From positions 1 to 64,000 of the forward strand of contig PGZZ01000010.1 of assembly GCA_002841545.1 (NCBI GenBank): a stretch of DNA of 64,000 nucleotides. The letters are read 5' to 3'. The translations under genes and the position numbers were made by a program. The stretch's first letter is position 1; each line of letters begins with the position of its first letter. Source of the stretch: Firmicutes bacterium HGW-Firmicutes-16. Its GTDB lineage: Bacteria; Bacillota; Clostridia; Oscillospirales; Oscillospiraceae. Of the stretch, positions 19,306 through 31,912 are shown one piece after another. Below the pieces are notes generated by a model. It saw nothing but the letters and a program-made list of their open reading frames with translations. It was not told the DNA's origin and searched no databases.

Positions 19306-20919
19306 TCAGTCTGAGACCGCAAGTGGGACTACTTCATCAGCCTCTTTGGCGTTTCCGATTATCGCCCACGCAATAAGCGCGGCTATTATGGATAACGGCA
19401 GGGAAACAACAATTGCATCCACCATTGAGAGAGTGCTGAGCGGTGTATCCCTCACGATTGACGTAGTACCGAAGATTAGTTTGCATATCTGCAGGCTACC
19501 GGAGGTTTTCTCCTGAACAAAGAACAGCCAGAGAAGACTTGTTGCGGAACCTGTGAGTATGCTTGCAATAGCTGCCTTCTTCGGAAATTTCTTAATATAG
19601 AGCGCAGCAATATAGGTCGGCAGAAAAGCAGCTGCGCACAGACCGTAAAACATAGAAGTGCCGATTGCAATTATCGCCATGCTGACGTCCAGCTTGCTGG
19701 AAAGCCAGGTAAGCAGCATGCTGATTATAAGCCCGATCATCATTGCAATACGGGTCAAAGGAATAGTGTCAGCTTTGAGCTTAAGCGATTGCTTCAAAAA
19801 GTCGCTTCCGAGAGCCGTTCCCATTGTATGGATAAGGGCGCTAAGTGTGGAAATACCCGCCGCCATGAGCACGACGAGGAAAACTCCGCCGAACCACTCG
19901 GGCAGGAAGGTTTTGATGAAGATGGGTATGATGCCGTCGTTTGAACCGGCGGCGATGATCGAAACCTGTCCAGTAGTGTTATAGAAAGCAACGTTGGATA
20001 GAGCCCCGACCGTAAAAGCTACGCCTGTCATGAATAGGATGAAGATACCGCCCGAGAGGACTGCGCGATTTAGTTCCCGGCCGCTTTTAACCGTCATAAA
20101 CTTCACCGAGAGCTGAGGCTGAGCGAGAACGCCGATTCCAACGCCCGCCACAAGAGTTGTTACTATGTTCCACCAGACCGGCGTGCCGCCTTTTGGCATT
20201 GTGGTCCAGCCTGTGAAGCCGCCTTTTATGAGCTTTTCTACCTGTTCCGTTATGCCCGGTTTAGTTATAAGCTCTGAAAGAGCAGTATGAGCGCGTGTCA
20301 CGCCGCCGAGCATCGAATAGGTATAAATGATGAGAAAGGCCATGCCTGCAAACATTATTGCACCTTGGAAAGCATCCGCATACATGATGCCTTTAAGCCC
20401 GCCCATTATAACGAATACCGCGACAAGAACTCCAACTATTATAAGTACAACATCAAAGCCGGCTCCGGTATAATTCGATACGAAATCAACGATTCCCTTT
20501 AGCACCGCCGAAGCATAGACCGGCATGAACAAAAAGATAAGGATTCCGGCATAGCCCTGTATAAATTTTGAATTAAAGCGGCGTGCAAAGAGCTCCGGCA
20601 TTGTATTTGAACCCAGTTTGTAACCGATTTCTCTCGTTTTCTTGCCGAATACAACGAAAGCGATTAAAACTCCGACGAAAATATTGAATACAGTAAGCCA
20701 TAACAGCCCCATTCCGAACTGCCCTGCAGCGCCTCCAAAACCGACGATGGCTGAGGTACTGATAAAGGTGGCACCGTAGGACAGAGCCATAACAATTGGA
20801 TGCATGTCCCTTCCGGCCAGAAGATAATCGCTGGTGGTCTTTGTTTTCTTGAAGCCTATGTAGGAGAATAACGACAATACCAAAACATAAACAATCAGGC
20901 TTACTATAATATAAATCAT
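19306..20919 (-). CDS. Sodium:solute symporter (SSS) family transporter
   Basis: 537-aa protein with 13 or more TM helices and PutP/PanF-like SSS topology. Translationally coupled to the upstream small accessory gene (ATGA overlap). Confidence 0.85.
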   Translation of the reverse strand: MIYIIVSLIVYVLVLSLFSYIGFKKTKTTSDYLLAGRDMHPIVMALSYGATFISTSAIVGFGGAAGQFGMGLLWLTVFNIFVGVLIAFVVFGKKTREIGYKLGSNTMPELFARRFNSKFIQGYAGILIFLFMPVYASAVLKGIVDFVSNYTGAGFDVVLIIVGVLVAVFVIMGGLKGIMYADAFQGAIMFAGMAFLIIYTYSMLGGVTRAHTALSELITKPGITEQVEKLIKGGFTGWTTMPKGGTPVWWNIVTTLVAGVGIGVLAQPQLSVKFMTVKSGRELNRAVLSGGIFILFMTGVAFTVGALSNVAFYNTTGQVSIIAAGSNDGIIPIFIKTFLPEWFGGVFLVVLMAAGISTLSALIHTMGTALGSDFLKQSLKLKADTIPLTRIAMMIGLIISMLLTWLSSKLDVSMAIIAIGTSMFYGLCAAAFLPTYIAALYIKKFPKKAAIASILTGSATSLLWLFFVQEKTSGSLQICKLIFGTTSIVRDTPLSTLSMVDAIVVSLPLSIIAALIAWAIIGNAKEADEVVPLAVSD

Positions 20920-21050
20920 TTATTGTCATCCTCCTTTTCCTTAGTGGCGTCCTTGTTCCAATTGAGAACTCCGTAAACGACACAGAAAATTGCGCCGCCG
21001 GCAGATAGTAGATAGGCAAGACAAATTGATACATCTGTCAATCCCAACAT
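20916..21050 (-). CDS. Symporter small accessory membrane protein (DUF997/YhdT-like)
   Basis: 44 aa (MLGLTDVSICLAYLLSAGGAIFCVVYGVLNWNKDATKEKEDDNK) with a single TM helix. RBS GGGAGG. Such a small membrane protein overlapping the start of an SSS gene is the canonical arrangement. Confidence 0.55.
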   Translation of the reverse strand: MLGLTDVSICLAYLLSAGGAIFCVVYGVLNWNKDATKEKEDDNK

Positions 21051-21154
21051 GTTTTTTCCTCCCTTTTCTTTTTTAGTTATTGTTGAAATGCTACGGTGTG
21101 GAAGGAGCGTGAGGGCCGTGGTTTTCGAAATTTTGCCTAAGGCCTGAGAAATAC

Positions 21155-21440
21155 AAAAAAGCCTTCCATCCCTATAAAAATAGGGACGAAAGGCTCTATA
21201 AGCATTCCGCGATACCACCCTGGTTCACATATACCAAAAGATATAATGCGCGCTCTTTATCGGATACTGATCATATCCTATCCCTTTAACGGAGGACTCC
21301 GCACCCACCTACTAATTTTTCAGAGGGCGCGCTCGGAAGGGAACTTCGGCGGATTTATCTTTAGGTCTGCTTTCAGTCAACGACAGACCCTCCCTGATAA
21401 GACAGCACAGCGTACTTTCCTTCTTCATCGCGTTTTAGTG
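21155..21440 (-). promoter_or_regulatory. T-box riboswitch leader (minus strand) with terminator/antiterminator, upstream of the symporter operon
   Basis: The minus strand reads AACCAGGGUGGUAUCGCGG, which matches 13 of 14 positions of the T-box consensus AGGGUGGNACCGCG. It is followed by a 15-bp terminator stem (agcctttcgtcccta/tagggatggaaggct) plus U6. An F-box-like CCGUUA and a GCGAUGAAGAAGG K-turn-like start lie upstream. Confidence 0.65.
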
Positions 21441-21483: not shown

Positions 21484-21642
21484 CAGTTATTTTTGTGGCG
21501 GCATAATAAGTCGCGATAAACAAGAGCGCTGAAAGAACTACACGTATTTCCTAGGAAATACATGCAACCAATCATTAATCGCGGATAATAGCAGGAGCCG
21601 CAGCTGGTGAGATTGCGGGCTCCTGCTATTTTTACAATTTGT

Positions 21643-22137
21643 CTAAATCTCAATTTTTATATAGTCCTGCTCTTCAAGAAATATCTTGTAGGTATCGGTC
21701 AGATAGGTTCTCTCAGGCAGACAGATAAGCAGTGTGCCGTCGCCGTGGAGGGGGAAGGGTGCGCCGTGCCAAGCGCCTGCGCGGAAAATTGTCATTGTGC
21801 CTTTTGGGATAATAAATGCCTCAAGCTTATCGGGCTCCGGTACTCCGCCGTTTGCGGGACCTGCATACATCACCATGTCGTCGTCAAAGGGCATCATGAC
21901 CTCAGAGGCTTCGGAATGGTATTCTACGTCACGAATCAGCATTTCGCGCGGGCCGACCTTCAGCGAGCCGAAGGCGATGGTCGCGGAGGAAGCCATGGGC
22001 GCAAGAGCCATATCGCGGTGGAAGGTGCAGGGGTAAGAACCCAGACCATAGGCGTCACCGGGGTCTGCTATGTTTGCAAGATAACCATAGGGCGCCCAAT
22101 TTTCCTGAGTCACAGGTACTGCTTTAATTGTTTTCAT
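21643..22137 (-). CDS. Cupin-like protein of the ureidoglycolate-lyase (AllA)-like fold, function unknown
   Basis: 164 aa. The N-terminus (IKAVPVTQENWAPYGYLANI) resembles AllA-family proteins. Start was placed at ATG 22137, which has a GGGTG RBS. It is the last gene of the lsrR-lsrK operon. Confidence 0.4.
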   Translation of the reverse strand: MKTIKAVPVTQENWAPYGYLANIADPGDAYGLGSYPCTFHRDMALAPMASSATIAFGSLKVGPREMLIRDVEYHSEASEVMMPFDDDMVMYAGPANGGVPEPDKLEAFIIPKGTMTIFRAGAWHGAPFPLHGDGTLLICLPERTYLTDTYKIFLEEQDYIKIEI

Positions 22138-22150
22138 AGCCACACCCTTT

Positions 22151-22501
22151 TCAGAATTTGTAGTTTTCTACTGATACCTTGTCGATTTCTTGATAAGGCG
22201 CCAAGGTTGAAACCATCTTTATAGGCTTATCGCTTACATTTATGCAGTAGTGCACTTCATTCGGCTCGATATGAATGAAGTCGCCGGCCTTCATATGGTT
22301 TACCGTTCCATCAACTACGATGTCCACTTCACCCTCGATAATATAGAAATTTTCCTCCATCACATTGTGATAGTGGGCGTCGAAATCATCACCGGGCATG
22401 AACTGCACAAGAGCAAAATTCATGCGCGGGCCTTTCATGAGATACTTTGGCCCACTGTCTCCAAAGCGGTACTCTCTCTCATTTTCATTCAGAACAAACA
22501 T
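22151..22501 (-). CDS. Cupin-domain protein
   Basis: Cupin motifs HYHNVMEENFYIIEGEV and GDFIHIEPNEVH. Start was placed at ATG 22501, which has a GGAGG RBS. Lies 36 nt downstream of lsrK. Confidence 0.6.
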   Translation of the reverse strand: MFVLNENEREYRFGDSGPKYLMKGPRMNFALVQFMPGDDFDAHYHNVMEENFYIIEGEVDIVVDGTVNHMKAGDFIHIEPNEVHYCINVSDKPIKMVSTLAPYQEIDKVSVENYKF

Positions 22502-22537
22502 GGCGTTACCTCCAGTAAAATATTTTTGCACGGCGGT

Positions 22538-24103
22538 TTATACGCCGGGTGCTCTCCACATATTTTTCGTTAATCCTCTATCGGTGAGGCTGAGCTGAGC
22601 CGCATAGACTTCATGCCAGATGGGATACATTTTTTCGTAAACTGCATGATTTACAAGGTCGGGTGTAAAAGTGCGTTCGATTTTGGCGATGCGTCTCGCT
22701 GTTTCGGGAATGTCTTTGTATATGCCAACGCCGTAGCCTGCGAGTATCGAGGCGCCGAGAGCGGTGGCCTCCTTGACTACGGGCACCTTTACGGGCATTC
22801 CCATCACGTCCGCAAGTATCTGACACCAGAGCGTGCTTTTAGAAGCGCCGCTTGCGAAGATAATCTCGCTGGGACGGTTGCCGGTGGCCTCTTCGACAAG
22901 CTCCATGTGCCCTTTGGCAAGCATTGCGGTGTTCTCGAGTATTGCGCGATAGAAGGTAAAGCGGCTGAACTTTTCGGGATCCAGCTCGAAATTAGTAAAG
23001 GTGGGGGAGGCGTGCTTCCAGCTGATAAAGTTCATCACGTCGGAAAAACAACACATCATTCCATAGCAGCCCGCAGGTATTTTCTCCGCTTCTCTGTTCA
23101 TAAGGTCGTAAGGATCTTCTCCGGTTTCTTCCGCCTGCTTCTTTTCAAGCTGGCAAAAGCCATCGCGGAACCAACGCATGACAAGCCCCGGCTTGAACGC
23201 GAGCGCTTCATATTGCCAGACTCCGGGTACGGCGTGACAGTTAACGCGCACGCGGCAGCCTTCGTCGGTTTTTCCGGTTGCGGTGTTAAATTCGTATTGC
23301 CAGAAGCTTCCGCCAAGAACCACCGCCTGATTGGGCTCGGTTGCGCCGAGACCAATGGTTCCCAGCTGGCAATCGCCTCCGCCGACGACTACGGGCGTAC
23401 CTTCTTTTAGTCCTGTTTGTTCAGCACCGACCGCACTGATACCCGAAAGCACGGTGCCGCATTCTACGACGGGAGGGAAAATGTCCCCTCGCAGACCGCA
23501 TTTTATCGCGATTTCAGGATCCCAGTCGCGTTTTTGCAAATCTAATATTCCGGTTGTTGAACCATTTGAGGGTTCAACAGCGAGTTCGCCTGTCAGTTTA
23601 TAGATAAGCCAGTCGTTGAACATTCCGAGCTTTGCGACACGCTTATATATTTCCGGCTCCTTGTCCTTTACCCACAGCAAACGAGGCAGTGCGCCGAGAG
23701 CATAGGTTTCTCCGGTTTTGCTGTATATTTCCTTCTCGAGCAGCGGATCAAGCCCGATTAGCTTTGCGACCTCATCGTTGCTGCGAGCATCGACGTTGGC
23801 GCAGGCCCAAATTTCCTTACCGTCTGAGTCGTAGAGAACAATGCCCTCACGCATAGAGGTCGTTGACACCGCGGCGATATCCGCAGGCGAAATTCCCGTC
23901 TGCGCCAGTACACCCTTAATACAACCGGACGCAAGACGCCAGTTAAACTCCCAGTCAAAGTTCATACTTCCGGGGTATCTCGGGTCTTCCTTGTGTTCCC
24001 ATTCTTCCTGGACGCATCCAAGCTGCTTGCCCTCTGTGTCGAACAATACAGCACGCACGCTGCCTGTTCCCGCATCCACGGCTAATAGATACTGGTCTGA
24101 CAT
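22538..24103 (-). CDS. lsrK: FGGY-family carbohydrate kinase, autoinducer-2 kinase LsrK-like
   Basis: The N-terminal YLLAVDAGTGSVRAVLFDTEGKQLG...EWEHKEDPRYPGSMNFDWEFNW closely parallels E. coli LsrK ([24 protein letters not shown]...EW.HL..P.VPGSMEFD). Start was placed at ATG 24103 (RBS GGGAGG). Confidence 0.8.
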   Translation of the reverse strand: MSDQYLLAVDAGTGSVRAVLFDTEGKQLGCVQEEWEHKEDPRYPGSMNFDWEFNWRLASGCIKGVLAQTGISPADIAAVSTTSMREGIVLYDSDGKEIWACANVDARSNDEVAKLIGLDPLLEKEIYSKTGETYALGALPRLLWVKDKEPEIYKRVAKLGMFNDWLIYKLTGELAVEPSNGSTTGILDLQKRDWDPEIAIKCGLRGDIFPPVVECGTVLSGISAVGAEQTGLKEGTPVVVGGGDCQLGTIGLGATEPNQAVVLGGSFWQYEFNTATGKTDEGCRVRVNCHAVPGVWQYEALAFKPGLVMRWFRDGFCQLEKKQAEETGEDPYDLMNREAEKIPAGCYGMMCCFSDVMNFISWKHASPTFTNFELDPEKFSRFTFYRAILENTAMLAKGHMELVEEATGNRPSEIIFASGASKSTLWCQILADVMGMPVKVPVVKEATALGASILAGYGVGIYKDIPETARRIAKIERTFTPDLVNHAVYEKMYPIWHEVYAAQLSLTDRGLTKNMWRAPGV

Positions 24104-24154
24104 ATTCGCACCTCCCAAAAAGAATTAATAAGTATAGTATTGCACAATATTGTG

Positions 24155-25075
24155 CTATTCACCGTTTTTGGCGAGTACTGCTTCGGCAGTATCCTCGTCT
24201 GTTATAAGTACATTGAGAAGTCCCGCGCGCAGAGCGCCCAGTATGGCGTCAACCTTGTTAACGCCCGCAGAAACGCCGATGACACGGTTCAGGGATTTAA
24301 GTGTCTGCAAAGGTGTGCTTATGAGACGGCTGTCAAGTTCCGCACCGACAGGCTCGCCGTTCTTGTCGTAGAAATGACACAGCACGTCTCCAACGGCATT
24401 CTGCATTGAGAGCAGGCGAAAATCGTTTTTGGTTATCGTGCCGCCTTTGACAACCGTTGCGTCGTCGTTCATGCCGCCTATGCCCACAACTGTTGCGGAG
24501 GCGAGCTTATGCATCATCAGAACCTCCTGAACGGAGGGCTCGGCGATAATCGCCTTTGCCATTTCTGAGGACGACACGACGAGAGGGGCTGGCATGAGGA
24601 AGAGCTTCGCGTTGAATATGCTGGATTTCGCTTCCGGTAGATAGCAGCTAACACCGCCGGAAAGAGAAATTATTGACAGGGTCTTTTCGGTGGTCGTAGC
24701 AAGATAATTGAGTACCTTGCCGAGCGTATAGCCGTAACCCATATTTATATAGTCGTTTTCCGAGGCGGATGATTCAATATACATAGCAGCGGCATATGCC
24801 ACGTTCTCGGCCGCGCCCATACCGTTCACCGGTGAAGGTACAATAAATACATCGCTGAGGCCCCAGGTGTCGGCCATTTTTTTCTCAATGTCGAAACGGC
24901 GAAAGCTGTCCTCCCTAAGTCGGAAGCTGACAATGCCGCTCTGGCGAGCCATGTCCAGAAGCTTCATTACATGTACGCGTGTGACTCCGAGCTTTTCTCC
25001 AATGCTCTGCTGAGTAAGTCCGCCGACATAGTAGTACCACGCGGATTTTGCCATGAGAATTTCTTCGTATTCCAC
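24155..25075 (-). CDS. lsrR: SorC/DeoR-type sugar-binding transcriptional regulator, LsrR-like
   Basis: The N-terminal HTH (AWYYYVGGLTQQSIGEKLGVTRVHVMKLLDMARQSGIVSFRL) is LsrR/CggR-like. C-terminal SorC sugar-phosphate-binding domain. Confidence 0.8.
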   Translation of the reverse strand: MEYEEILMAKSAWYYYVGGLTQQSIGEKLGVTRVHVMKLLDMARQSGIVSFRLREDSFRRFDIEKKMADTWGLSDVFIVPSPVNGMGAAENVAYAAAMYIESSASENDYINMGYGYTLGKVLNYLATTTEKTLSIISLSGGVSCYLPEAKSSIFNAKLFLMPAPLVVSSSEMAKAIIAEPSVQEVLMMHKLASATVVGIGGMNDDATVVKGGTITKNDFRLLSMQNAVGDVLCHFYDKNGEPVGAELDSRLISTPLQTLKSLNRVIGVSAGVNKVDAILGALRAGLLNVLITDEDTAEAVLAKNGE

Positions 25076-25332
25076 AAAATCACCTCAATAATTGATAGGA
25101 CGCACCATATATGTAATATTATGCTACAATTGTCAGATAAAACAACAATTGTATCGCGGCGCGACAAAAATCTTTTGTTATAAGCATAACAGCTCTCTCG
25201 GCTGATGTCAATATGCCACTCGCTGATTTTCCGGCATAATGTCCATAAAAATTTGAAAACCTCCAATTACACCCATGATAATTGCCGAACAAGAAGAAAA
25301 TAACAGACGTATTAAAAAAATCGGTAGATATA

Positions 25333-25361
25333 TTGACAAACAGCAAATCATGATTTATGAT
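25333..25361 (+). promoter_or_regulatory. Sigma-A-like promoter for lsrACDBF
   Basis: TTGACA, 17-nt spacer, TATGAT. About 75 nt upstream of the TTG start at 25438. Confidence 0.45.
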
Positions 25362-25437
25362 AAACAAAAAGAGGTCAGAGAAACATACAAATGTCGGAAC
25401 AAGTGACAATTATTCTAGCGTTAAGGGGGGAGCACAA

Positions 25438-26961
25438 TTGATCGAAAGTAATGGTGCACCAAAATTACTGTCTGTCCGGGGAATAACGAAAGCCTTCGGC
25501 ACCAATAGGGTACTTAAGTCTGTTGCGCTTGATCTTGAGCAGGGAGAGATTCTCGCGCTGATCGGCGGAAACGGCGCCGGTAAAAGCACGCTGATGAAGA
25601 TAATTATGGGTATCTATCAACCCGACGGCGGAGAGATAACCATAAACGGAAAAATAACGGCTATGACAAAGCCGTCCGTTGCGCTTTCGTCGGGCATATA
25701 CATGGTTCCACAGGAGCCCATGCTGTTCCCGAACATGACGGTCGAGGAAAACATAACGATGGGCTTCAAAGAGAGCCAACGTGAGCTGCGAAACCGACTC
25801 AAAAATATAATGGAAGACATCGGCTGGAAATTCGACCTAGGACGCAAGGCAAGCAGCCTGTCCATAGCGGAGCAGACTCTGGTCGAAATACTACGCGCAC
25901 TCCTTCGCGAGGCAAAGGTTCTCATTTTGGATGAGCCTACATCAGCTCTGACCTTTGACGAGGTCGAAAGCTTTTTCCGCGTGATCGAGGATCTGCGAAA
26001 AAAGGGAATAGGCATCATTTATATTACGCATAGACTTGCAGAGGTCTTTGAGATTGCCACTCACGTTTCAATTATGTGCGACGGTATCATAACACTGCAT
26101 GGCCCGGTGGTCGATTTCAACAGGGAAATGCTTGTTAAAAGCCTCATGCCGCCGAATACCGAGCATGTCGAAAGCAAAGCGAATGAGTGCAAGATAATGG
26201 ACTACGAAGGGAAAAAGCCGGTTTTCGAGCTTCAAAATTTCAGCGGCTTCGGTTTTAACAATATATCATTAAAAGTGTATCCGGGTGAAATTCTGGGCGT
26301 GGCGGGCGTTGTCGGCGCGGGACGCACCGAGCTTGTCAGCACCATCTTCGGCAGAGACAAGGTTCTGGGCGGTCACGCGGTTCTGGACGGCGCGGACATC
26401 ACCGGCATGAAAACAAAGGATATTCTTAAAGCGGGAATTAACTATGTTCCTGAGGATAGATACCTTTACGGAATCTACGGTATCAGCTCCGTCGGGTCCA
26501 ATATGTCGAGCGCAAGCCTAAACGACAAGTCACTCGGACGTTTCATCCTTAATCGTAAGAATGAGCAGTCACTGGCTCAGACTTACATAGACAATTTCAG
26601 AATTAAGGTCACCGATCAGGAGCAGCTTATGTCGAGTCTCTCCGGCGGCAATCAGCAAAAGGTCGTGCTCGGGCGTTCGCTTTCCACTAAGCCGAAGCTC
26701 GTTATCATGGACGAGCCTACCCGAGGCATCGATGCCGCAGCTCGCGGAGATATATACACCATTATCCAGAAGCTCCGTGACGAGGGGGTCGCAATATTGC
26801 TCGTGTCCTCTGACATGGAGGAAATTATCGAATTGGCCGACAGAGCTGTCTGCGTTTTCCAAGGAAGGATAAACGCCGAGCTCTGCAAGGAAGAAATTAC
26901 TCAGGATAAGCTCACCTCCGCGTCATTCGGTGTGGTGACAGAAAAGGAGGGGGCAGTATGA
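25438..26961 (+). CDS. lsrA: Sugar ABC transporter ATP-binding protein with duplicated ATPase domains, LsrA-like
   Basis: Two Walker A / ABC signature sets (GGNGAGKST..LSGGNQQ). Start was assigned to TTG 25438, which has an AAGGGGGG RBS 7 nt upstream. The longer track ORF carries a non-homologous extension. Confidence 0.8.
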   Translation: MIESNGAPKLLSVRGITKAFGTNRVLKSVALDLEQGEILALIGGNGAGKSTLMKIIMGIYQPDGGEITINGKITAMTKPSVALSSGIYMVPQEPMLFPNMTVEENITMGFKESQRELRNRLKNIMEDIGWKFDLGRKASSLSIAEQTLVEILRALLREAKVLILDEPTSALTFDEVESFFRVIEDLRKKGIGIIYITHRLAEVFEIATHVSIMCDGIITLHGPVVDFNREMLVKSLMPPNTEHVESKANECKIMDYEGKKPVFELQNFSGFGFNNISLKVYPGEILGVAGVVGAGRTELVSTIFGRDKVLGGHAVLDGADITGMKTKDILKAGINYVPEDRYLYGIYGISSVGSNMSSASLNDKSLGRFILNRKNEQSLAQTYIDNFRIKVTDQEQLMSSLSGGNQQKVVLGRSLSTKPKLVIMDEPTRGIDAAARGDIYTIIQKLRDEGVAILLVSSDMEEIIELADRAVCVFQGRINAELCKEEITQDKLTSASFGVVTEKEGAV

Positions 26962-27986
26962 AGCTTAAAAAAATGATGGGCAGAACCCGCTGGATTTCGA
27001 GCTTAGTTTTTCTGGTTGCCCTCTTTCTGATAGTCGGAAGCATAAACAGCTCGTTTCTAACTGCGGAAAGCATAATCAGCTGCCTTAATAACAGCGTGGT
27101 TTACATGCTCCTTGCCGTCGGTATAGCATTCGTTATACTCTGCGGAGAAATAGATGTTTCGATCGGCGCGACGATGGGACTCGCTGCTGCAATGGCGGGT
27201 ACAATGGCTCAGAATGGTCAGAGCTTGGGCGTTATGATAGTCTATGCTCTTGTTCTCGGCATAGCTGTCGGAGTGTTCAACGGCATAGGCGTCGCAATCC
27301 TAGGCATCCCCTCGCTAATATTCACACTCGGCGCCGGCGGTATCCTGCGTGGAATCGTGTATCTCTATTCCGGCGGCCGTACAGTCGAAAACTTCGCCGG
27401 CAGCTTCACATCACTCAATAATACCACGGTCTTTTCTGGAATAACTTGGTTCTTTACCTTGGCATTCGTCATCGTCATAGCCGTATATTTCATCCTGACT
27501 TATACGAAAAGAGGAAAGTATTTCATTGCTGTTGGCGATAATATTAACGGCGCGATACTTGTTGGTCTGCCCGCAAAGCAAACAAAAATTGTGGCTTACA
27601 TCATTTCCGGCTGCTTCGCTGCCTTTGCAGGTATTATATTTGCCTCCAAATATGGACAAGTTAATATTGTTGCGGGTTCAGGTTATGAAATGTCGGCCAT
27701 TGCGGCCTGCGTCATCGGCGGAATTTCGCTGACGGGCGGTCTTGGCGACGTAATAGGCGCGATGATAGGCGCTGTAATAATGGCGTCGATTACGAAGATA
27801 CTCGTTTTCGTCGGCCTATCTTCTGATTACAACAACACAATAACAGGCGTCATGCTAATAACGATAGTTGTAGTGGACGCATTGACACAGCGCCGTGCTA
27901 CCGAAAGTGCGAGGCGCAAGCGGCTTGCGGCAAGATCAGCCCCCGGTGCTTCACCGCAGCCTTTGGCTGAGGAGGTAGCAATATGA
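26958..27986 (+). CDS. lsrC: ABC transporter permease, LsrC-like
   Basis: Ribose-type ABC permease topology. Start overlaps the lsrA stop. Confidence 0.75.
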   Translation: MKLKKMMGRTRWISSLVFLVALFLIVGSINSSFLTAESIISCLNNSVVYMLLAVGIAFVILCGEIDVSIGATMGLAAAMAGTMAQNGQSLGVMIVYALVLGIAVGVFNGIGVAILGIPSLIFTLGAGGILRGIVYLYSGGRTVENFAGSFTSLNNTTVFSGITWFFTLAFVIVIAVYFILTYTKRGKYFIAVGDNINGAILVGLPAKQTKIVAYIISGCFAAFAGIIFASKYGQVNIVAGSGYEMSAIAACVIGGISLTGGLGDVIGAMIGAVIMASITKILVFVGLSSDYNNTITGVMLITIVVVDALTQRRATESARRKRLAARSAPGASPQPLAEEVAI

Positions 27987-29038
27987 AAACGAACTTCCTT
28001 AAAGGACTTGGTGCTAAGCTCAAAACTTGGGAATTTGCCCTGCTTATGATTCTCGTTGCTGAGTTTGTTGTATTCGGCGCTGTTAACCCTAAGTTCCTCG
28101 CTTTGAATTCTCTCTTTTCGAGTGTCAACAATTACATCAGCATCTGTATAATTTCTCTATTTGTAACTTTCGTCATGATTACCGGAGGCATCGATATTCA
28201 GGCGAGTTCCATCGTCGGTCTTACCTCGATTGTTATCGGTGTCAGCTGGAGCGATCTCGGACTCAACATCTGGGTCTGTATAATACTCGCAATTGTTGTC
28301 GCAGCGGTCTGCGGTGCTATTTCAGGATATTTCGTTGCGTTCTGCAACGTGCAGCCGATGGTAGTCACGCTCGGAGGCAGTTTCCTCTACTCGGGTATAG
28401 CCCTCCTTATATCCACGCTTTCGAGCACTCCGGCTTACATGGGCATAGGCGGTTTTCCGGGCAAAACAGCGGAAGGTATCTACACCTCCTTCCGTCTGCT
28501 CGGGAAGTGGAAACTTTTTGACATGATTCCAATTCAGCTTCTCATCTATTTCGGTCTCGTTGTTATCTGTTATATACTGCTTCACAAATCAAAATACGGA
28601 CGTAAAGTCTTCCTTGTGGGTATTAACCGTAATACGGCAGAACTCTCGGGAATAAATTCCCGCCTTATCATAATGAGTACTTATATTCTGACGGGAATTG
28701 GAGCCGCAATTGCGGGTATACTATTAACTGCCAATGTTGATTCCGCAAAAAGTGATCTTGGCTCAACGTTTACCTTGTCAATCATCACGGCGGTCGTTCT
28801 CGGCGGTACCTTGAGTACCGGCGGAAAGGGCAGCATTATAGGCACAGCTCTCGCGTCACTTGTAATCTGTATCATGCGCTTCGGTCTGCCGATTTGCTTC
28901 GGCGTCAGCACACAGAACCTCGATTTGCCGATGGGAATTATGCTTGTCGTCATAATCGCTGGCCGCGCTATAACAAGCAGGCTTAAACTCTCATCCGGCT
29001 CTGTCCGCAAAGGCCGTCTAGTGCAGAAAACGCACTAA
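27983..29038 (+). CDS. lsrD: ABC transporter permease, LsrD-like
   Basis: Second ribose-type permease. Start overlaps the lsrC stop. Confidence 0.75.
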   Translation: MKTNFLKGLGAKLKTWEFALLMILVAEFVVFGAVNPKFLALNSLFSSVNNYISICIISLFVTFVMITGGIDIQASSIVGLTSIVIGVSWSDLGLNIWVCIILAIVVAAVCGAISGYFVAFCNVQPMVVTLGGSFLYSGIALLISTLSSTPAYMGIGGFPGKTAEGIYTSFRLLGKWKLFDMIPIQLLIYFGLVVICYILLHKSKYGRKVFLVGINRNTAELSGINSRLIIMSTYILTGIGAAIAGILLTANVDSAKSDLGSTFTLSIITAVVLGGTLSTGGKGSIIGTALASLVICIMRFGLPICFGVSTQNLDLPMGIMLVVIIAGRAITSRLKLSSGSVRKGRLVQKTH

Positions 29039-29102
29039 AACCGGTATCCTGGAACTCGACGTTCCTTGATATAAAAATTTAATATTTATCGGAGGAAAAT
29101 CA

Positions 29103-30227
29103 ATGAAAAAGATGTTGGCTCTCTTGCTGGCTCTCTGCATGGTGCTTGCACTTGCAGCATGCACCAGCAACAAACCCGCAGCATCAGCATCTCCTGCAGC
29201 ATCTCCCGCAGCATCAGCAGCAACCGGTGAAGTCAAGGACATTAAGGGCATGACCGTTGCATTCATCCCTAAACTGACCGGAAACTCCTTCTTTGAAGCC
29301 GCAAACGACGGCGCTCAGAAGTATGCCGCCGATTGGGGCATCACCGTTAAGTACATGGGCAGCGCAACTGCCTCTGTAACTGACCAGCTGACCGTTATCG
29401 ACCAGGCCATCGCAGAAGGCGTTGACGCAATCGCAATCTCTTCCGTTGACGCAAAGGCACTCGACGAAAAATTGAAGGAAGCCCAGGATGCCGGCATCGT
29501 AGTCTGCACATGGGATTCCGACGTATCCTCTGACGCACGTTCAATCATGGTATCCCAAGGCACAGCAGACATCCTCGGACCAATGCTGGTTGAGATGGGC
29601 GTTAAGTCCCTGACCGAACGCGGCAAGGATCCCACCAAGGACGCAATCAAGTATGTTTGGCACTATTCACAGGCAACCGTTGCAGACCAGAACTCCTGGT
29701 ATGTTGCCGGCGAAGCTTATATCAAAGAGAAGTATCCTAACTGGGTCGTAGTAAGCGAGCCCTTCTACTCCGAGCAGGACAGCCAGAAGTCCGTTTCCGT
29801 CGGCGAATCCATCCTCGAAGCATATTCAGACATCGACCTTATCATCTGCAATGACTCTACCGCACTTCCCGGCCAGTGCCAGGCTGCCCAGAACAAGGGC
29901 CTTACTGCAGAAGACATCACCATCACCGGCTTCTGCACTCCTTCCGGCATGAAGAGCTACCTCGATGCAGGCATCACCACCCGTTGGGGACTATGGGACT
30001 GCGGTATTCAGGGCGGACTCGGCTGCTACTTCGCAGCATACCTCGCAGCAGGTAACACAATCAAGGTCGGCGATACCATCAATGTTCCCGGTATAGGCGA
30101 CTGCACAGTTATCGCAAATGACCAGCTCGTTTCTGGCGATACCACTGCCGACACGAATAACGGCGTCGTGCTTCTGCCTGAGCGTGTTGAGTTCACCAAG
30201 GACAACATCGCACAGTACAACTTCTAA
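29103..30227 (+). CDS. lsrB: Periplasmic-binding-protein-type substrate-binding lipoprotein, LsrB-like
   Basis: Lipobox LALAAC followed by a type-I PBP fold. RBS GGAGGA. Confidence 0.75.
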   Translation: MKKMLALLLALCMVLALAACTSNKPAASASPAASPAASAATGEVKDIKGMTVAFIPKLTGNSFFEAANDGAQKYAADWGITVKYMGSATASVTDQLTVIDQAIAEGVDAIAISSVDAKALDEKLKEAQDAGIVVCTWDSDVSSDARSIMVSQGTADILGPMLVEMGVKSLTERGKDPTKDAIKYVWHYSQATVADQNSWYVAGEAYIKEKYPNWVVVSEPFYSEQDSQKSVSVGESILEAYSDIDLIICNDSTALPGQCQAAQNKGLTAEDITITGFCTPSGMKSYLDAGITTRWGLWDCGIQGGLGCYFAAYLAAGNTIKVGDTINVPGIGDCTVIANDQLVSGDTTADTNNGVVLLPERVEFTKDNIAQYNF

Positions 30228-30317
30228 GCCAGGTTATACTATCAAAGTTTTTGGGGCGCGGGCTGACCGCGCCCCATTTTAAAAAAATACTTATCATATT
30301 TCAAGGAGGAAATTACA

Positions 30318-31205
30318 ATGGCGGATAAAGATGGATTGAAGGTTGCGAAAGACTATCATATGGATTGTCCTTTTGCCAATACGAACGGATTCCACGTGAA
30401 GGGAGCCGGTAACCTCGACTGGGGCATGAAAAAGCACCTATCCAACATTTTCGACCCTAAAAGCGGCAACACAGTCATGTTTGCATTTGACCACGGTTAT
30501 TTTATGGGCTCCACTGCGGGTTTGGAACGGCTCGATCTTGTTATCCCGCCGGTGATTCCCTATGTTGATGTCCTGATGGGTACTCGCGGCGCACTTCGTG
30601 CCTGCATTCCGCCCGATAACCGCAAGGGCGTAGCGCTGCGCGTTACCTCAGGCTCCTCAATGCTCGACGAAGACCTTTCACATGAGGTCATTGCGGTCGA
30701 TATCGAGGACGCTATCCGCATGAACGCCGACTGCATGGCAGTGCAGACCTTCATCGGAGCGGACGGACAGCTCTCCAGTCTGGATAACCTTTCACGCTGC
30801 ATAAACCTAGGTCTGCGCTACAGCATACCCGTCATGGGCGTTGTAGCTGTCGGAAAGGATATGGAGCGCACGGATCGTTTCTTCAAGCTCGCAACAAGGA
30901 TACTGGCGGAGCTTGGTGCAAACATTGTCAAAACCTATTACTGTGAGAATTTCGAAGAGGTCGTTGCTGCCTGCCCTGTGCCGATTGTCGTCGCAGGCGG
31001 CAAAAAGCTGCCTGAGGACGAAGCGCTTACTCTCGCATATAACTCCATAAAGGGCGGAGCAAACGGCGTTGACATGGGACGCAATATATTCCAGAGCGCG
31101 CACCCAGTTGAAATGGCGATGTCCGTCCGCAAGGTCGTGCACGAAGGCTTCACAGATAAAGAGGCGTTCGAGTATTACACCGATCTTATTAACACAAAGG
31201 CCTGA
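30318..31205 (+). CDS. lsrF: Class-I aldolase family protein, LsrF-like 3-hydroxy-5-phosphonooxypentane-2,4-dione thiolase
   Basis: Near-collinear with E. coli LsrF. Ours reads MADKDGLKVAKDY..FHVKGAGNLDWGMKKHLSNIFDPKSGNTVMFAFDHGYF...VAGGKKLPEDEAL. E. coli reads [51 protein letters not shown]...IAGGKKLPEREAL. Confidence 0.8.
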   Translation: MADKDGLKVAKDYHMDCPFANTNGFHVKGAGNLDWGMKKHLSNIFDPKSGNTVMFAFDHGYFMGSTAGLERLDLVIPPVIPYVDVLMGTRGALRACIPPDNRKGVALRVTSGSSMLDEDLSHEVIAVDIEDAIRMNADCMAVQTFIGADGQLSSLDNLSRCINLGLRYSIPVMGVVAVGKDMERTDRFFKLATRILAELGANIVKTYYCENFEEVVAACPVPIVVAGGKKLPEDEALTLAYNSIKGGANGVDMGRNIFQSAHPVEMAMSVRKVVHEGFTDKEAFEYYTDLINTKA

Positions 31206-31227
31206 CCGACAAGGCCTTAAATTCAAA

Positions 31228-31280
31228 AAGAGACTGCCGCGCAAGGGATCTGAGATCCTGTGTGCGGCAGTCTCTTTTTA
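31228..31280 (+). terminator. Bidirectional intrinsic terminator between lsrF (+) and the liv operon tail (-)
   Basis: 11-12-bp stem gagactgccgc/gcggcagtctc, flanked by A5 upstream and T5 downstream. Confidence 0.6.
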
Positions 31281-31285
31281 AGCTT

Positions 31286-31912
31286 TCAGCGGATGAACAG
31301 GGGAATAGCTTTCTCGATAGTATCTACGCAGCCGTCTTCTCCCAGCTCGGAAGAATCCAAACTGATGTCGAAGTGTGCGGCGTCGCGCCAATCATTTCCC
31401 GTATAATATCGGTAATACTCTGCGCGACGTTTGTCTTCCTTAGAGATGTACCTTGCTATCTCCTTGTCGCTCCATGCGAGCGAGAAATAGGCCACTTTCT
31501 TCTTTCTCTTTTCGAGCGGAGCATGTATAAAGACGCGAAGCACATCTGTGCGGCCTGCCAGCAGATAATCGGCACAGCGACCGACTATAATACAGCTGCC
31601 GCTGCTTGATGCCAATTCCTTTATAACCTTGGCCTGAAACTCGAATAGGTTTTTGGTGGAGATGAAATCATCGTCGTCCGGAGGAAGAACCTCTCCGGAG
31701 TAGATTTTCTTAGCGGCTGTCATCATTTCAAGCTTCCCGATGTGCTCATCAGATTCCCCGAAGAGACCCTCACGGATACCGCTGACGTCAGAGGCCAGCC
31801 GCAGAAGATCGCGGTCATAGAAAGGGATATTTAGCCGCTCGGAAAGTTTAGCCGCGATATTGCGTCCTCCGCTGCCGGTTTCCCTCGCGATGGTGATTAT
31901 GAAATGTTCCAT
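31286..31912 (-). CDS. Cytidylate-kinase-like family (AAA/NMP-kinase-like) protein
   Basis: N-terminal ITIARETGSGGRNIAAKLSERLNIPFYDRDLL, typical of the Cytidylate_kin2 family. Last gene of the liv cluster. Confidence 0.55.
   Translation of the reverse strand: MEHFIITIARETGSGGRNIAAKLSERLNIPFYDRDLLRLASDVSGIREGLFGESDEHIGKLEMMTAAKKIYSGEVLPPDDDDFISTKNLFEFQAKVIKELASSSGSCIIVGRCADYLLAGRTDVLRVFIHAPLEKRKKKVAYFSLAWSDKEIARYISKEDKRRAEYYRYYTGNDWRDAAHFDISLDSSELGEDGCVDTIEKAIPLFIR

Follow-up and report, generated by a model that had tools for sequence, protein, structure and literature searches.

We analyzed the predicted lsr locus at positions 21643–31283 of the first 64,000 nucleotides of contig PGZZ01000010.1 from Firmicutes bacterium HGW-Firmicutes-16 (GCA_002841545.1); this whole 64-kb stretch is hereafter the window. 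Directly after lsrK, the gene for the autoinducer-2 (AI-2) kinase, the locus encodes a small cupin of 116 amino acids (aa). We propose, with a probability of roughly 0.55, that this cupin is a metal-dependent isomerase of phosphorylated 4,5-dihydroxy-2,3-pentanedione (DPD; phosphorylated form, P-DPD), and thus a functional analogue of LsrG. No bacterial signal between species is more widespread than AI-2, and Lsr uptake removes it, quenching the signaling of neighboring cells. To our knowledge, enterobacteria are the only group in which the intracellular route through kinase, isomerase and thiolase has been established. In Proteobacteria, P-DPD isomerization is carried out by the cofactor-less, ABM-fold protein LsrG, which is said in work by Marques et al. 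of 2011 and 2014 to make 3-hydroxy-2,4-pentanedione-5-phosphate (P-HPD) from P-DPD, with LsrF reportedly cleaving this product with coenzyme A (CoA). On our reading, a small cupin has taken the place of LsrG throughout the Bacillota-type lsr lineage, and the replacement is not a peculiarity of one genome. The interest is lineage-wide, as LsrG appears to have been replaced by a small metallo-cupin, with a second cupin or an RbsD-type protein as an optional helper.

Linkage of the small cupin to lsrK and absence of LsrG from the loci

The genomic context of related loci (identified below by L numbers) was profiled with flanks of at most 10 kb on each side, ~20 kb in total per locus. An LsrK-anchored survey, with one genome per species, took in 80 loci (LsrK 67–87% identical), the best of 318 confirmed to encode LsrK. 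Their hosts include Oscillospiraceae, Lachnospiraceae, Oribacterium, Enterocloster, Clostridium, Limiplasma, Olsenella and some metagenome-assembled genomes (MAGs) labeled Chloroflexi; the nearest LsrK among these species-representative genomes is from an Oscillospiraceae MAG (87% identity).

The cupin gene is located directly 3′ of lsrK in 75 of the 75 species-representative loci with enough downstream sequence. In the other direction, lsrK is directly 5′ of the cupin in 73 of 75 cupin-anchored metagenome contigs, and the two exceptions are contigs shorter than 2 kb with ~1× coverage. The pairing is also present in Bacillus sp. N5-665, where lsrR-lsrK-cupin-lsrF form a single operon, and on the conjugative plasmid pMGB0761-1 of Lacticaseibacillus paracasei; the cupins beside lsrK in these two are 46% and 59% identical, respectively, to that of the window and have the same invariant residues. 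An earlier reading of this DNA made from the letters alone (hereafter, the sequence-only reading) had described the arrangement as unusual. This is wrong for the lineage, because a cupin after lsrK is universal there and Bacillota-type lsr loci normally have this arrangement.

The position after lsrK is the one that LsrG takes elsewhere. The α-proteobacterial lsr (ait) loci on Sinorhizobium meliloti pSymB and Paracoccus aminophilus pAMI4 have the same arrangement as the window, with lsrACDB divergent from lsrR, lsrK and a third gene that begins ~40 nt 3′ of lsrK; this third gene encodes an ABM protein of 101–104 aa in the two plasmids, whereas it is the cupin in the window. Since the α-proteobacterial ABM proteins are LsrG orthologues (E ~1e-22 to 1e-23 against E. 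coli LsrG), LsrG and the cupin share one slot in otherwise equivalent operons. In the LsrK phylogeny, the LsrG-bearing proteobacterial clade is set apart from the cupin-bearing Bacillota-type clade, and lsrG was always inside the locus in the LsrG-bearing lineages examined.

The sequence-only reading had reported that lsrG is missing, and for the locus and the 64-kb window both tblastn and phmmer agree. E. coli LsrG had a best tblastn hit of E = 2.7 in the window and no match in the 80 related genome loci (phmmer --max, E ≤ 10), and three α-proteobacterial LsrG orthologues used as queries had no match in the Bacillota-type loci, including 80 metagenome loci. The four queries recognize one another with E values of ~1e-22 to 1e-35 (the α-proteobacterial ones versus E. 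coli, ~1e-22 to 1e-24). Together, the LsrG-negative set comprises >160 related loci in which the other lsr genes cluster. The window has a second cupin-fold protein (AllA-like; see below), and both it and the small cupin are confidently predicted to be cupin β-barrels and not to have the ferredoxin-like ABM fold, so the two could only be analogues of LsrG and never members of its family. A RAST table for a Bacillus cereus-group genome lists a cupin with lsrR, lsrK, lsrC, lsrD, LsrF, an ATPase and a binding protein, and LsrG is unlisted there (PMC8876208).

Four loci contain a minimal trio of lsrF divergent from lsrK-cupin, with neither Lsr transporter nor lsrR genes in the fetched flanks of ~10 kb (L056:8818–11983, L025:8869–12005, L039:8478–11742 and L087:8831–11960). 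In L056 and L025, both from Lachnospiraceae, the trio is flanked by genes for CTP synthase, FtsH and UvrC on one side and for an AlaX-like protein, a methyltransferase and Hsp70 on the other. Because these trios stand without a transporter between housekeeping genes, kinase, cupin and thiolase look like a self-contained three-enzyme module. The trios also suggest that some Lachnospiraceae may process DPD/AI-2 that is imported or made by another route.

The cupin also accompanies the locus where transfer is likely, i.e., on the L. paracasei plasmid and on contigs linked by name to Anaerobiospirillum. The latter (L180 and L181, 1693–10351) carry a complete cupin-type lsr locus whose cupin is 76% identical to that of the window, and one source names this cupin Anaerobiospirillum. 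The neighboring genes, which we take to be proteobacterial-looking, encode an MscS-family channel, a YggT-family protein, a pyrroline-5-carboxylate reductase-like protein and a topoisomerase IV/gyrase A-like protein. This suggests that the lsr locus moved between phyla with the cupin and not with LsrG. Separately, Clostridia-like lsr loci (LsrK 68–77% identical) were seen in MAGs labeled Chloroflexi/Flexilinea, Planctomycetaceae, Prevotella and Bacteroidales (L015, L016, L017, L072, L088 and L090), for which either bin contamination or horizontal transfer may account. In several lineages, a gene for a membrane protein of the auxin-efflux-carrier family Mem_trans (PF03547) was found beside lsrF or after the cupin (L004:1–650, L011:1–599 and L029:11967–12953).

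The 116-aa protein belongs to Cupin_2 (PF07883; 69.5 bits against a threshold of 27.2). Its predicted metal ligands H43, H45, E49 and H84 show no variation in 48 homologues or in the Bacillus and Lacticaseibacillus proteins, nor does the N-terminal signature R12-F13-x-D15-x-G17-P-K-Y-L21 from Bacillus (46% identity) to Clostridia; E82, N88 and D107 are likewise kept over this range. The family is highly conserved, with the best 120 of 1260 homologues being 72–100% identical and mostly 116 aa long; a protein of the HGW-Firmicutes-16 MAG matches the window cupin at 100% identity. The AlphaFold2 model (mean predicted local distance difference test score, pLDDT, 87.9) is nearest to the ~110-aa Thermococcus cupins 7ZVM/7ZVY and to KdgF (5FPX), with root-mean-square deviations of ~1.5–1.6 Å over 89 aligned columns at 25–28% identity. 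These are monocupins with an HxH...E...H site like that of the 116-aa protein and low sequence identity to it, and the RFxDxGPKYL loop is a conserved signature that sets the lsr-linked family off from them. The reaction of LsrG is a ketol (enediol) isomerization adjacent to a phosphate ester. Metal-dependent cupins such as phosphomannose isomerase catalyze reactions of this type, and the predicted chemistry and fold of the small cupin would fit P-DPD isomerization at the level of plausibility. A role as a quercetinase or other dioxygenase was considered and judged unlikely, with the gene tied to lsrK and lsrF and the hosts of cupin-type lsr loci being mostly anaerobic Clostridia.

Identity and organization of the lsr locus

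The locus consists of nine open reading frames (ORFs) within 21643–31283 of the window, four packed on the minus strand and five on the plus strand. These, with the associated control elements, are as follows.

21585..21625 (approximate), minus strand: hairpin 3′ of the AllA-like gene, ATAGCAGGAGCC...GGCTCCTGCTAT, read from the sequence
21643..22137, minus strand: AllA/DUF4867-like protein, 164 aa, from ATG 22137 (the ORF from GTG 22143 is 166 aa)
22151..22501, minus strand: small monocupin, 116 aa, Cupin_2, from ATG 22501
22538..24103, minus strand: lsrK, AI-2 (DPD) kinase, 521 aa, from ATG 24103 (longest ORF from TTG 24118)
24155..25075, minus strand: lsrR, SorC-family repressor, PF04198, NCBIfam LsrR as best match
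25076..25437, no strand: divergent control region between lsrR and lsrA, ~360 bp
25438..26961, plus strand: lsrA, ABC ATPase, probable start TTG 25438 (longest ORF from ATG 25357)
26958..27986, plus strand: lsrC permease, NCBIfam LsrC as best match
27983..29038, plus strand: lsrD permease, NCBIfam LsrD as best match
29103..30227, plus strand: lsrB, AI-2-binding lipoprotein with lipobox LAAC, matching PDB 6DSP
30318..31205, plus strand: lsrF, 3-hydroxy-5-phosphonooxypentane-2,4-dione thiolase, NCBIfam NF006081
31224..31279, no strand: intrinsic terminator serving both directions, perfect stem of 16 bp, read from the sequence

The Lsr orthology claimed by the sequence-only reading was borne out by BLAST and HMM comparison. 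LsrK matches NCBIfam NF008187 with 746 bits (equivalog cut-off 528; XylB, the second-best model, reaches 207 bits with a cut-off of 380), and LsrF matches NF006081 with 407 bits (cut-off 297) and retains the catalytic Schiff-base K203 plus D57 and D251. For the other five proteins the corresponding NCBIfam Lsr model is the top match and lies under its cut-off: LsrA (528 bits, cut-off 586), LsrC (239 bits), LsrD (230 bits), LsrB (302 bits, cut-off 384) and LsrR (195.7 bits, cut-off 486; PF04198, 190.8 bits). The cut-offs that they miss appear to be tuned to enterobacteria.

LsrB is ~70% identical to the Clostridium saccharobutylicum LsrB structure 6DSP (E = 5e-135), its closest solved relative, and the stretch IICNDSTALP is identical in both, a comparison that concerns the receptor only. 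The C. saccharobutylicum protein is reportedly part of the clostridial LsrB group of Torcato et al. 2019. Of the six AI-2 contact residues of enterobacterial LsrB, for which we presume the list of Pereira et al. 2009, the window protein keeps K35, D116, D166 and Q167. Unlike the E. coli protein, it is a lipoprotein with P220N and A222S, and it is identical to 6DSP at both of these positions. As far as these matches go, the region is a genuine and complete Lsr-type AI-2 uptake and processing locus, and the system is functional-looking, i.e., it would import, phosphorylate and break down AI-2, with P-DPD inducing lsr.

E. coli and Salmonella (lsrRK divergent from lsrACDBFG) share with the window the divergent two-operon layout and the set of transporter, kinase, repressor and thiolase genes, and the gene order is identical to that of E. 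coli. Unlike in E. coli, no lsrG follows lsrF or occurs in the window, and two cupin-fold genes follow lsrK. Full-length identities to the E. coli K-12 proteins are 51% for LsrK, 52% for LsrF, 40% for LsrB, 39% for LsrA, 36% for LsrC, 37% for LsrD and 32% for LsrR. The statement that LsrK and LsrF align almost residue-for-residue with their E. coli counterparts is thus overstated given their 51% and 52% identity, though the alignments are full-length. Among Bacillota-type lsr loci, this one is ordinary.

The minus-strand genes are closely spaced, with a Shine-Dalgarno sequence at each downstream start. The cupin ATG (22501), preceded by GGAGG, is 36 nt from the lsrK stop, and the AllA-like ATG (22137) is 13 nt from the cupin stop. 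Of the spacings of 36, 36 and 13 nt given previously, these two stand and the one between lsrR and lsrK probably does not: it is 36 nt with TTG 24118 as the lsrK start and 51 nt with ATG 24103, and the latter is the likely start because TTG 24118 overlaps the ribosome-binding site GGGAGGTG. Similarly, lsrA probably starts at TTG 25438, as a strong ribosome-binding site (AAGGGGGGAG) lies ahead of it and the L001 orthologue is 506 aa long.

The lsrACDBF genes are divergent from lsrR-lsrK-cupin-AllA-like and end at a terminator, as had been noted from the sequence. In this hairpin AAAAAGAGACTGCCGC (31224–31239) pairs perfectly with GCGGCAGTCTCTTTTT (31264–31279), flanked by an A-tract upstream and a T-tract downstream, and it is common to the convergent gene at 31286–31912. 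The consensus terminator scan missed it because its loop exceeds the 8-nt limit of the scan. The hairpin at 21585..21625 is terminator-like with a T-poor tail and probably marks where the lsrR-lsrK-cupin-AllA-like operon ends.

In the divergent control region, σ70-like promoters were identified for lsrR (TTGACA..TATGCT, 25211–25183) and lsrA (TTGACA..TATGAT, 25333–25361). Two palindromic TACAATTGT half-sites, 11 nt apart, occupy 25125–25153 just 3′ of the lsrR promoter. Both the divergent promoters and the TACAATTGT element are kept in L001 and L014, and we regard these elements as candidate LsrR operators.

Downstream of the AllA-like gene and on the same strand, the stretch 19306–21100 has a sodium:solute symporter (SSF) gene preceded by a tiny membrane ORF (~44 aa). 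The L001 orthologue of this ORF belongs to PF28215 (Symport_access), and L001 keeps the synteny. The hairpin at 21197–21158 is strong and terminator-like.

The AllA-like protein and RbsD/FucU

The 164-aa product of the last gene of the operon is only distantly related to characterized families. It scores barely above the cut-off for Ureidogly_lyase (PF04115; 26.5 bits against 23) and below the gathering cut-off for DUF4867 (PF16161; 18.3 against 28.7), and 53 of the 53 members of its family match both models weakly (best PF16161 E = 3.9e-9). Its AlphaFold2 model (pLDDT 94.6) is most similar to the ureidoglycolate lyases 2BDR/1XSQ (template-modeling score 0.75–0.80, identity 14–16%) and then to the DUF4867 structures 9GYZ/9GYY. 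The latter represent SftX/SqvB of sulfoquinovose pathways, which are like the AllA-like protein in their cupin fold, 2His-2Glu ligands and FGGY-kinase neighbor and differ in length, the AllA-like protein being ~60–80 residues shorter than DUF4867 proteins (~220–243 aa). Four invariant residues, E74, H76, E81 and H126, coincide in the alignment with the 2His-2Glu site that binds Fe in Bacillus megaterium SqvB (PMC11968277). An identity as a true ureidoglycolate lyase was rejected: the scores against the NCBIfam AllA models (23–37 bits) are far under the equivalog cut-offs of 160–260, the gene partners are lsr genes, and no allantoin-catabolism genes are among the six genes on either side of the locus.

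The AllA-like gene follows the cupin in 15 of 71 genome loci and 11 of 70 metagenome loci, scattered over at least six subclades of the LsrK tree. All of its homologues with inspected context (55–87% identity) are in the order lsrR-lsrK-cupin-AllA-like, with unrelated flanks. Since it is always in lsr context and yet in a minority of loci, it seems to be dedicated to lsr and dispensable.

Other loci have a gene for an RbsD/FucU mutarotase. It begins 15 nt after the cupin in three of them (L023:11986–12393, L024:11972–12379 and L030:6949–7356), where PF05025 is matched with as much as 99.7 bits, and follows lsrF in six (L058, L079, L080, L081, L082 and L085). In L. paracasei, the gene in the slot that the AllA-like gene has in the window is annotated as rbsD, and Roseicitreum has an RbsD/FucU gene alongside LsrG; the RbsD/FucU genes of lsr loci include that at L177:371–766. 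The sequence-only reading had put forward the two cupin-fold proteins as a candidate pair to replace LsrG or to act in a different downstream step. The universal linkage and the LsrG slot make a replacement likely for the 116-aa cupin; they do not extend to the AllA-like protein, which is patchy (~16–21% of loci), has RbsD/FucU in its stead elsewhere, and is thus more likely an accessory than an LsrG-replacing partner.

LsrB binds cyclic, hydrated AI-2. LsrK phosphorylates the hydroxyl at C5, and only the open chain has this group free. As LsrK needs open-chain DPD, a helper that opens the hemiketal would be a sensible accessory function, and hemiketal opening is chemically akin to the cleavage of a carbinolamide by AllA. 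We tentatively suggest that the AllA-like protein may be such a ring-opening helper for AI-2, possibly a mutarotase. For DUF4867 proteins, which are often adjacent to and even fused with FGGY kinases, a role in ketose ring-opening or as a mutarotase has been proposed (PMC11968277). It is doubtful that both assignments hold jointly, i.e., that the cupin is the P-DPD isomerase in essentially all Gram-positive-type Lsr systems and the AllA-like protein the AI-2 ring-opener or mutarotase.

Proposed pathway, competing explanations and implications

In the pathway that we propose, the LsrB lipoprotein would bind AI-2 and LsrACD would import it, as homology to the solved LsrB indicates. Optionally, and as the weakest step, the AllA/DUF4867-like metallo-cupin may speed the conversion of cyclic hemiketal AI-2 to linear DPD. 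LsrK would phosphorylate DPD to P-DPD (an equivalog-level match), and P-DPD would lift LsrR repression at the divergent promoters, following the E. coli model. The metal bound by His/His/Glu/His of the small cupin could then stabilize an enediolate and shift the carbonyl from C3 to C4, yielding P-HPD, a step suggested by gene context, slot equivalence and fold. Finally, LsrF with CoA would convert P-HPD to dihydroxyacetone phosphate and acetyl-CoA (the match is at equivalog level and the catalytic Lys is kept).

Several points weigh against these assignments. The functions of monocupins are very diverse, among PDB sequences the small cupin matches a quercetin dioxygenase domain best, and "phosphomannose isomerase" is only the deposited name of 7ZVM/7ZVY. 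A fusion of LsrK to the cupin was detected 3′ of lsrR in L182 (4015–5976; GCA_037194325.1, contig JBANRW010260416.1), as a 653-aa ORF with LsrK residues 1 to ~520, a short linker and the cupin at 528–637; it is weak support for the role of the cupin, coming from a single 6-kb contig and possibly being an assembly or gene-calling artefact. With regard to the AllA-like protein, its gene and RbsD/FucU were never found together in the 80 genome loci (16 versus 9), an absence of co-occurrence that has a probability of ~13% by chance and is only suggestive. Moreover, the DUF4867 study found no activity, mutarotase activity included, for its own protein (PMC11968277). P-DPD isomerization without an enzyme may be slow and still occur, in which case an isomerase may not be strictly required.

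This last point leads to an unlikely alternative, in which no enzyme replaces LsrG: P-DPD would isomerize spontaneously or on LsrF, and the cupin would have a side role such as detoxification or trapping of reactive diketones, metal delivery, or processing of another AI-2 adduct. The cupin superfamily is functionally promiscuous, and according to Marques et al. 2011 LsrG reportedly accelerates an equilibrium that also proceeds without it. A side role is hard to square with the near-perfect two-way linkage to lsrK/lsrF over Bacilli, Clostridia and transferred copies, the very high conservation (72–100% in the best 120 homologues), the slot swapped with LsrG and the persistence of the cupin in the minimal kinase-cupin-thiolase modules, all of which argue that it does a core pathway step. 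These modules retain the small cupin and not the AllA-like gene, which also bears on the quite unlikely case that the roles are reversed or shared, with the AllA-like protein or the pair acting as P-DPD isomerase and the small cupin in a KdgF-like ring opening or tautomerization of AI-2. Such a division of labor draws on KdgF being among the nearest folds of the small cupin, on the intact, invariant 2His-2Glu site of the AllA-like protein, and on the presence of both genes in the lsrK operon here. However, the ~80% of such lsr loci without the AllA-like gene still keep lsrF, α-proteobacterial LsrG occupies the slot of the small cupin, and the RbsD/FucU gene beside LsrG in Roseicitreum suggests that the mutarotase role is distinct from the isomerase role.

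Two further explanations leave the cupins with other tasks. A bona fide LsrG could be encoded elsewhere in these genomes, with the cupins on a different, additional downstream or parallel step; for this genome the searches covered 64 kb, and for each related locus ~20 kb, and ABM-domain proteins are common and short. We consider this improbable, given that no orthologue was found in >160 loci that cluster all other lsr genes, that LsrG-bearing lineages always have lsrG within the locus, and that the B. cereus-group RAST table lists the cupin with lsr genes and not LsrG (PMC8876208). That the locus serves another pentose or ketose, with the cupins as ordinary sugar isomerases, is highly improbable. 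The sub-cut-off scores of LsrA, LsrC, LsrD, LsrB and LsrR, the paralogy of Lsr to the ribose and rhamnose systems and the RbsD-like genes in some loci would suit such a locus. It is a weak reading in light of LsrB, with the same binding-site residues as its ~70% identical C. saccharobutylicum relative, and of LsrK and LsrF, both above equivalog cut-offs while the XylB model is far below its own.

Should the small cupin indeed be the isomerase, its addition would complete the pathway in Lachnospiraceae, Oscillospiraceae, the Bacillus cereus group and some lactobacilli, and the cupin would outperform lsrG as a genomic marker of AI-2 consumers in microbiome surveys. It would also be a clear non-orthologous enzyme displacement, with a second, unrelated fold for the LsrG step. 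The system is not of a new kind; it is a directly testable displacement case in a well-studied signaling pathway. Ring opening by the AllA-like protein, if true, would be the first biochemical function for AllA-like/DUF4867 cupins beside FGGY kinases, and the gene is in any case a tractable handle on the unexplained cupins of this type that accompany sugar kinases. In human-gut genomes, one survey counted 43 Firmicutes species with Lsr transporter genes plus lsrK and lsrR, Lachnospiraceae making up over half (PMC12503165).

In an open-access collection of 7.7 million papers and in bioRxiv, a coverage that leaves key papers on Gram-positive LsrB receptors outside, we found no text pairing lsrG with a cupin and no published function for either cupin. 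For a cupin paired with lsrK, the same literature held only the RAST/PATRIC table of the B. cereus-group genome (PMC8876208), whose RAST name implies that annotators had already noticed the co-location of cupin and lsrK.

The thiolase position shows variation of its own. In the α-proteobacterial lsr loci of S. meliloti pSymB (L176:3923–5173), Paracoccus pAMI4 (L178:4059–5300) and Roseicitreum (L179:2664–4010), a gene of ~415–450 aa annotated as class II aldolase/adducin family follows lsrB in place of LsrF, which could be a second non-orthologous replacement in the AI-2 pathway.

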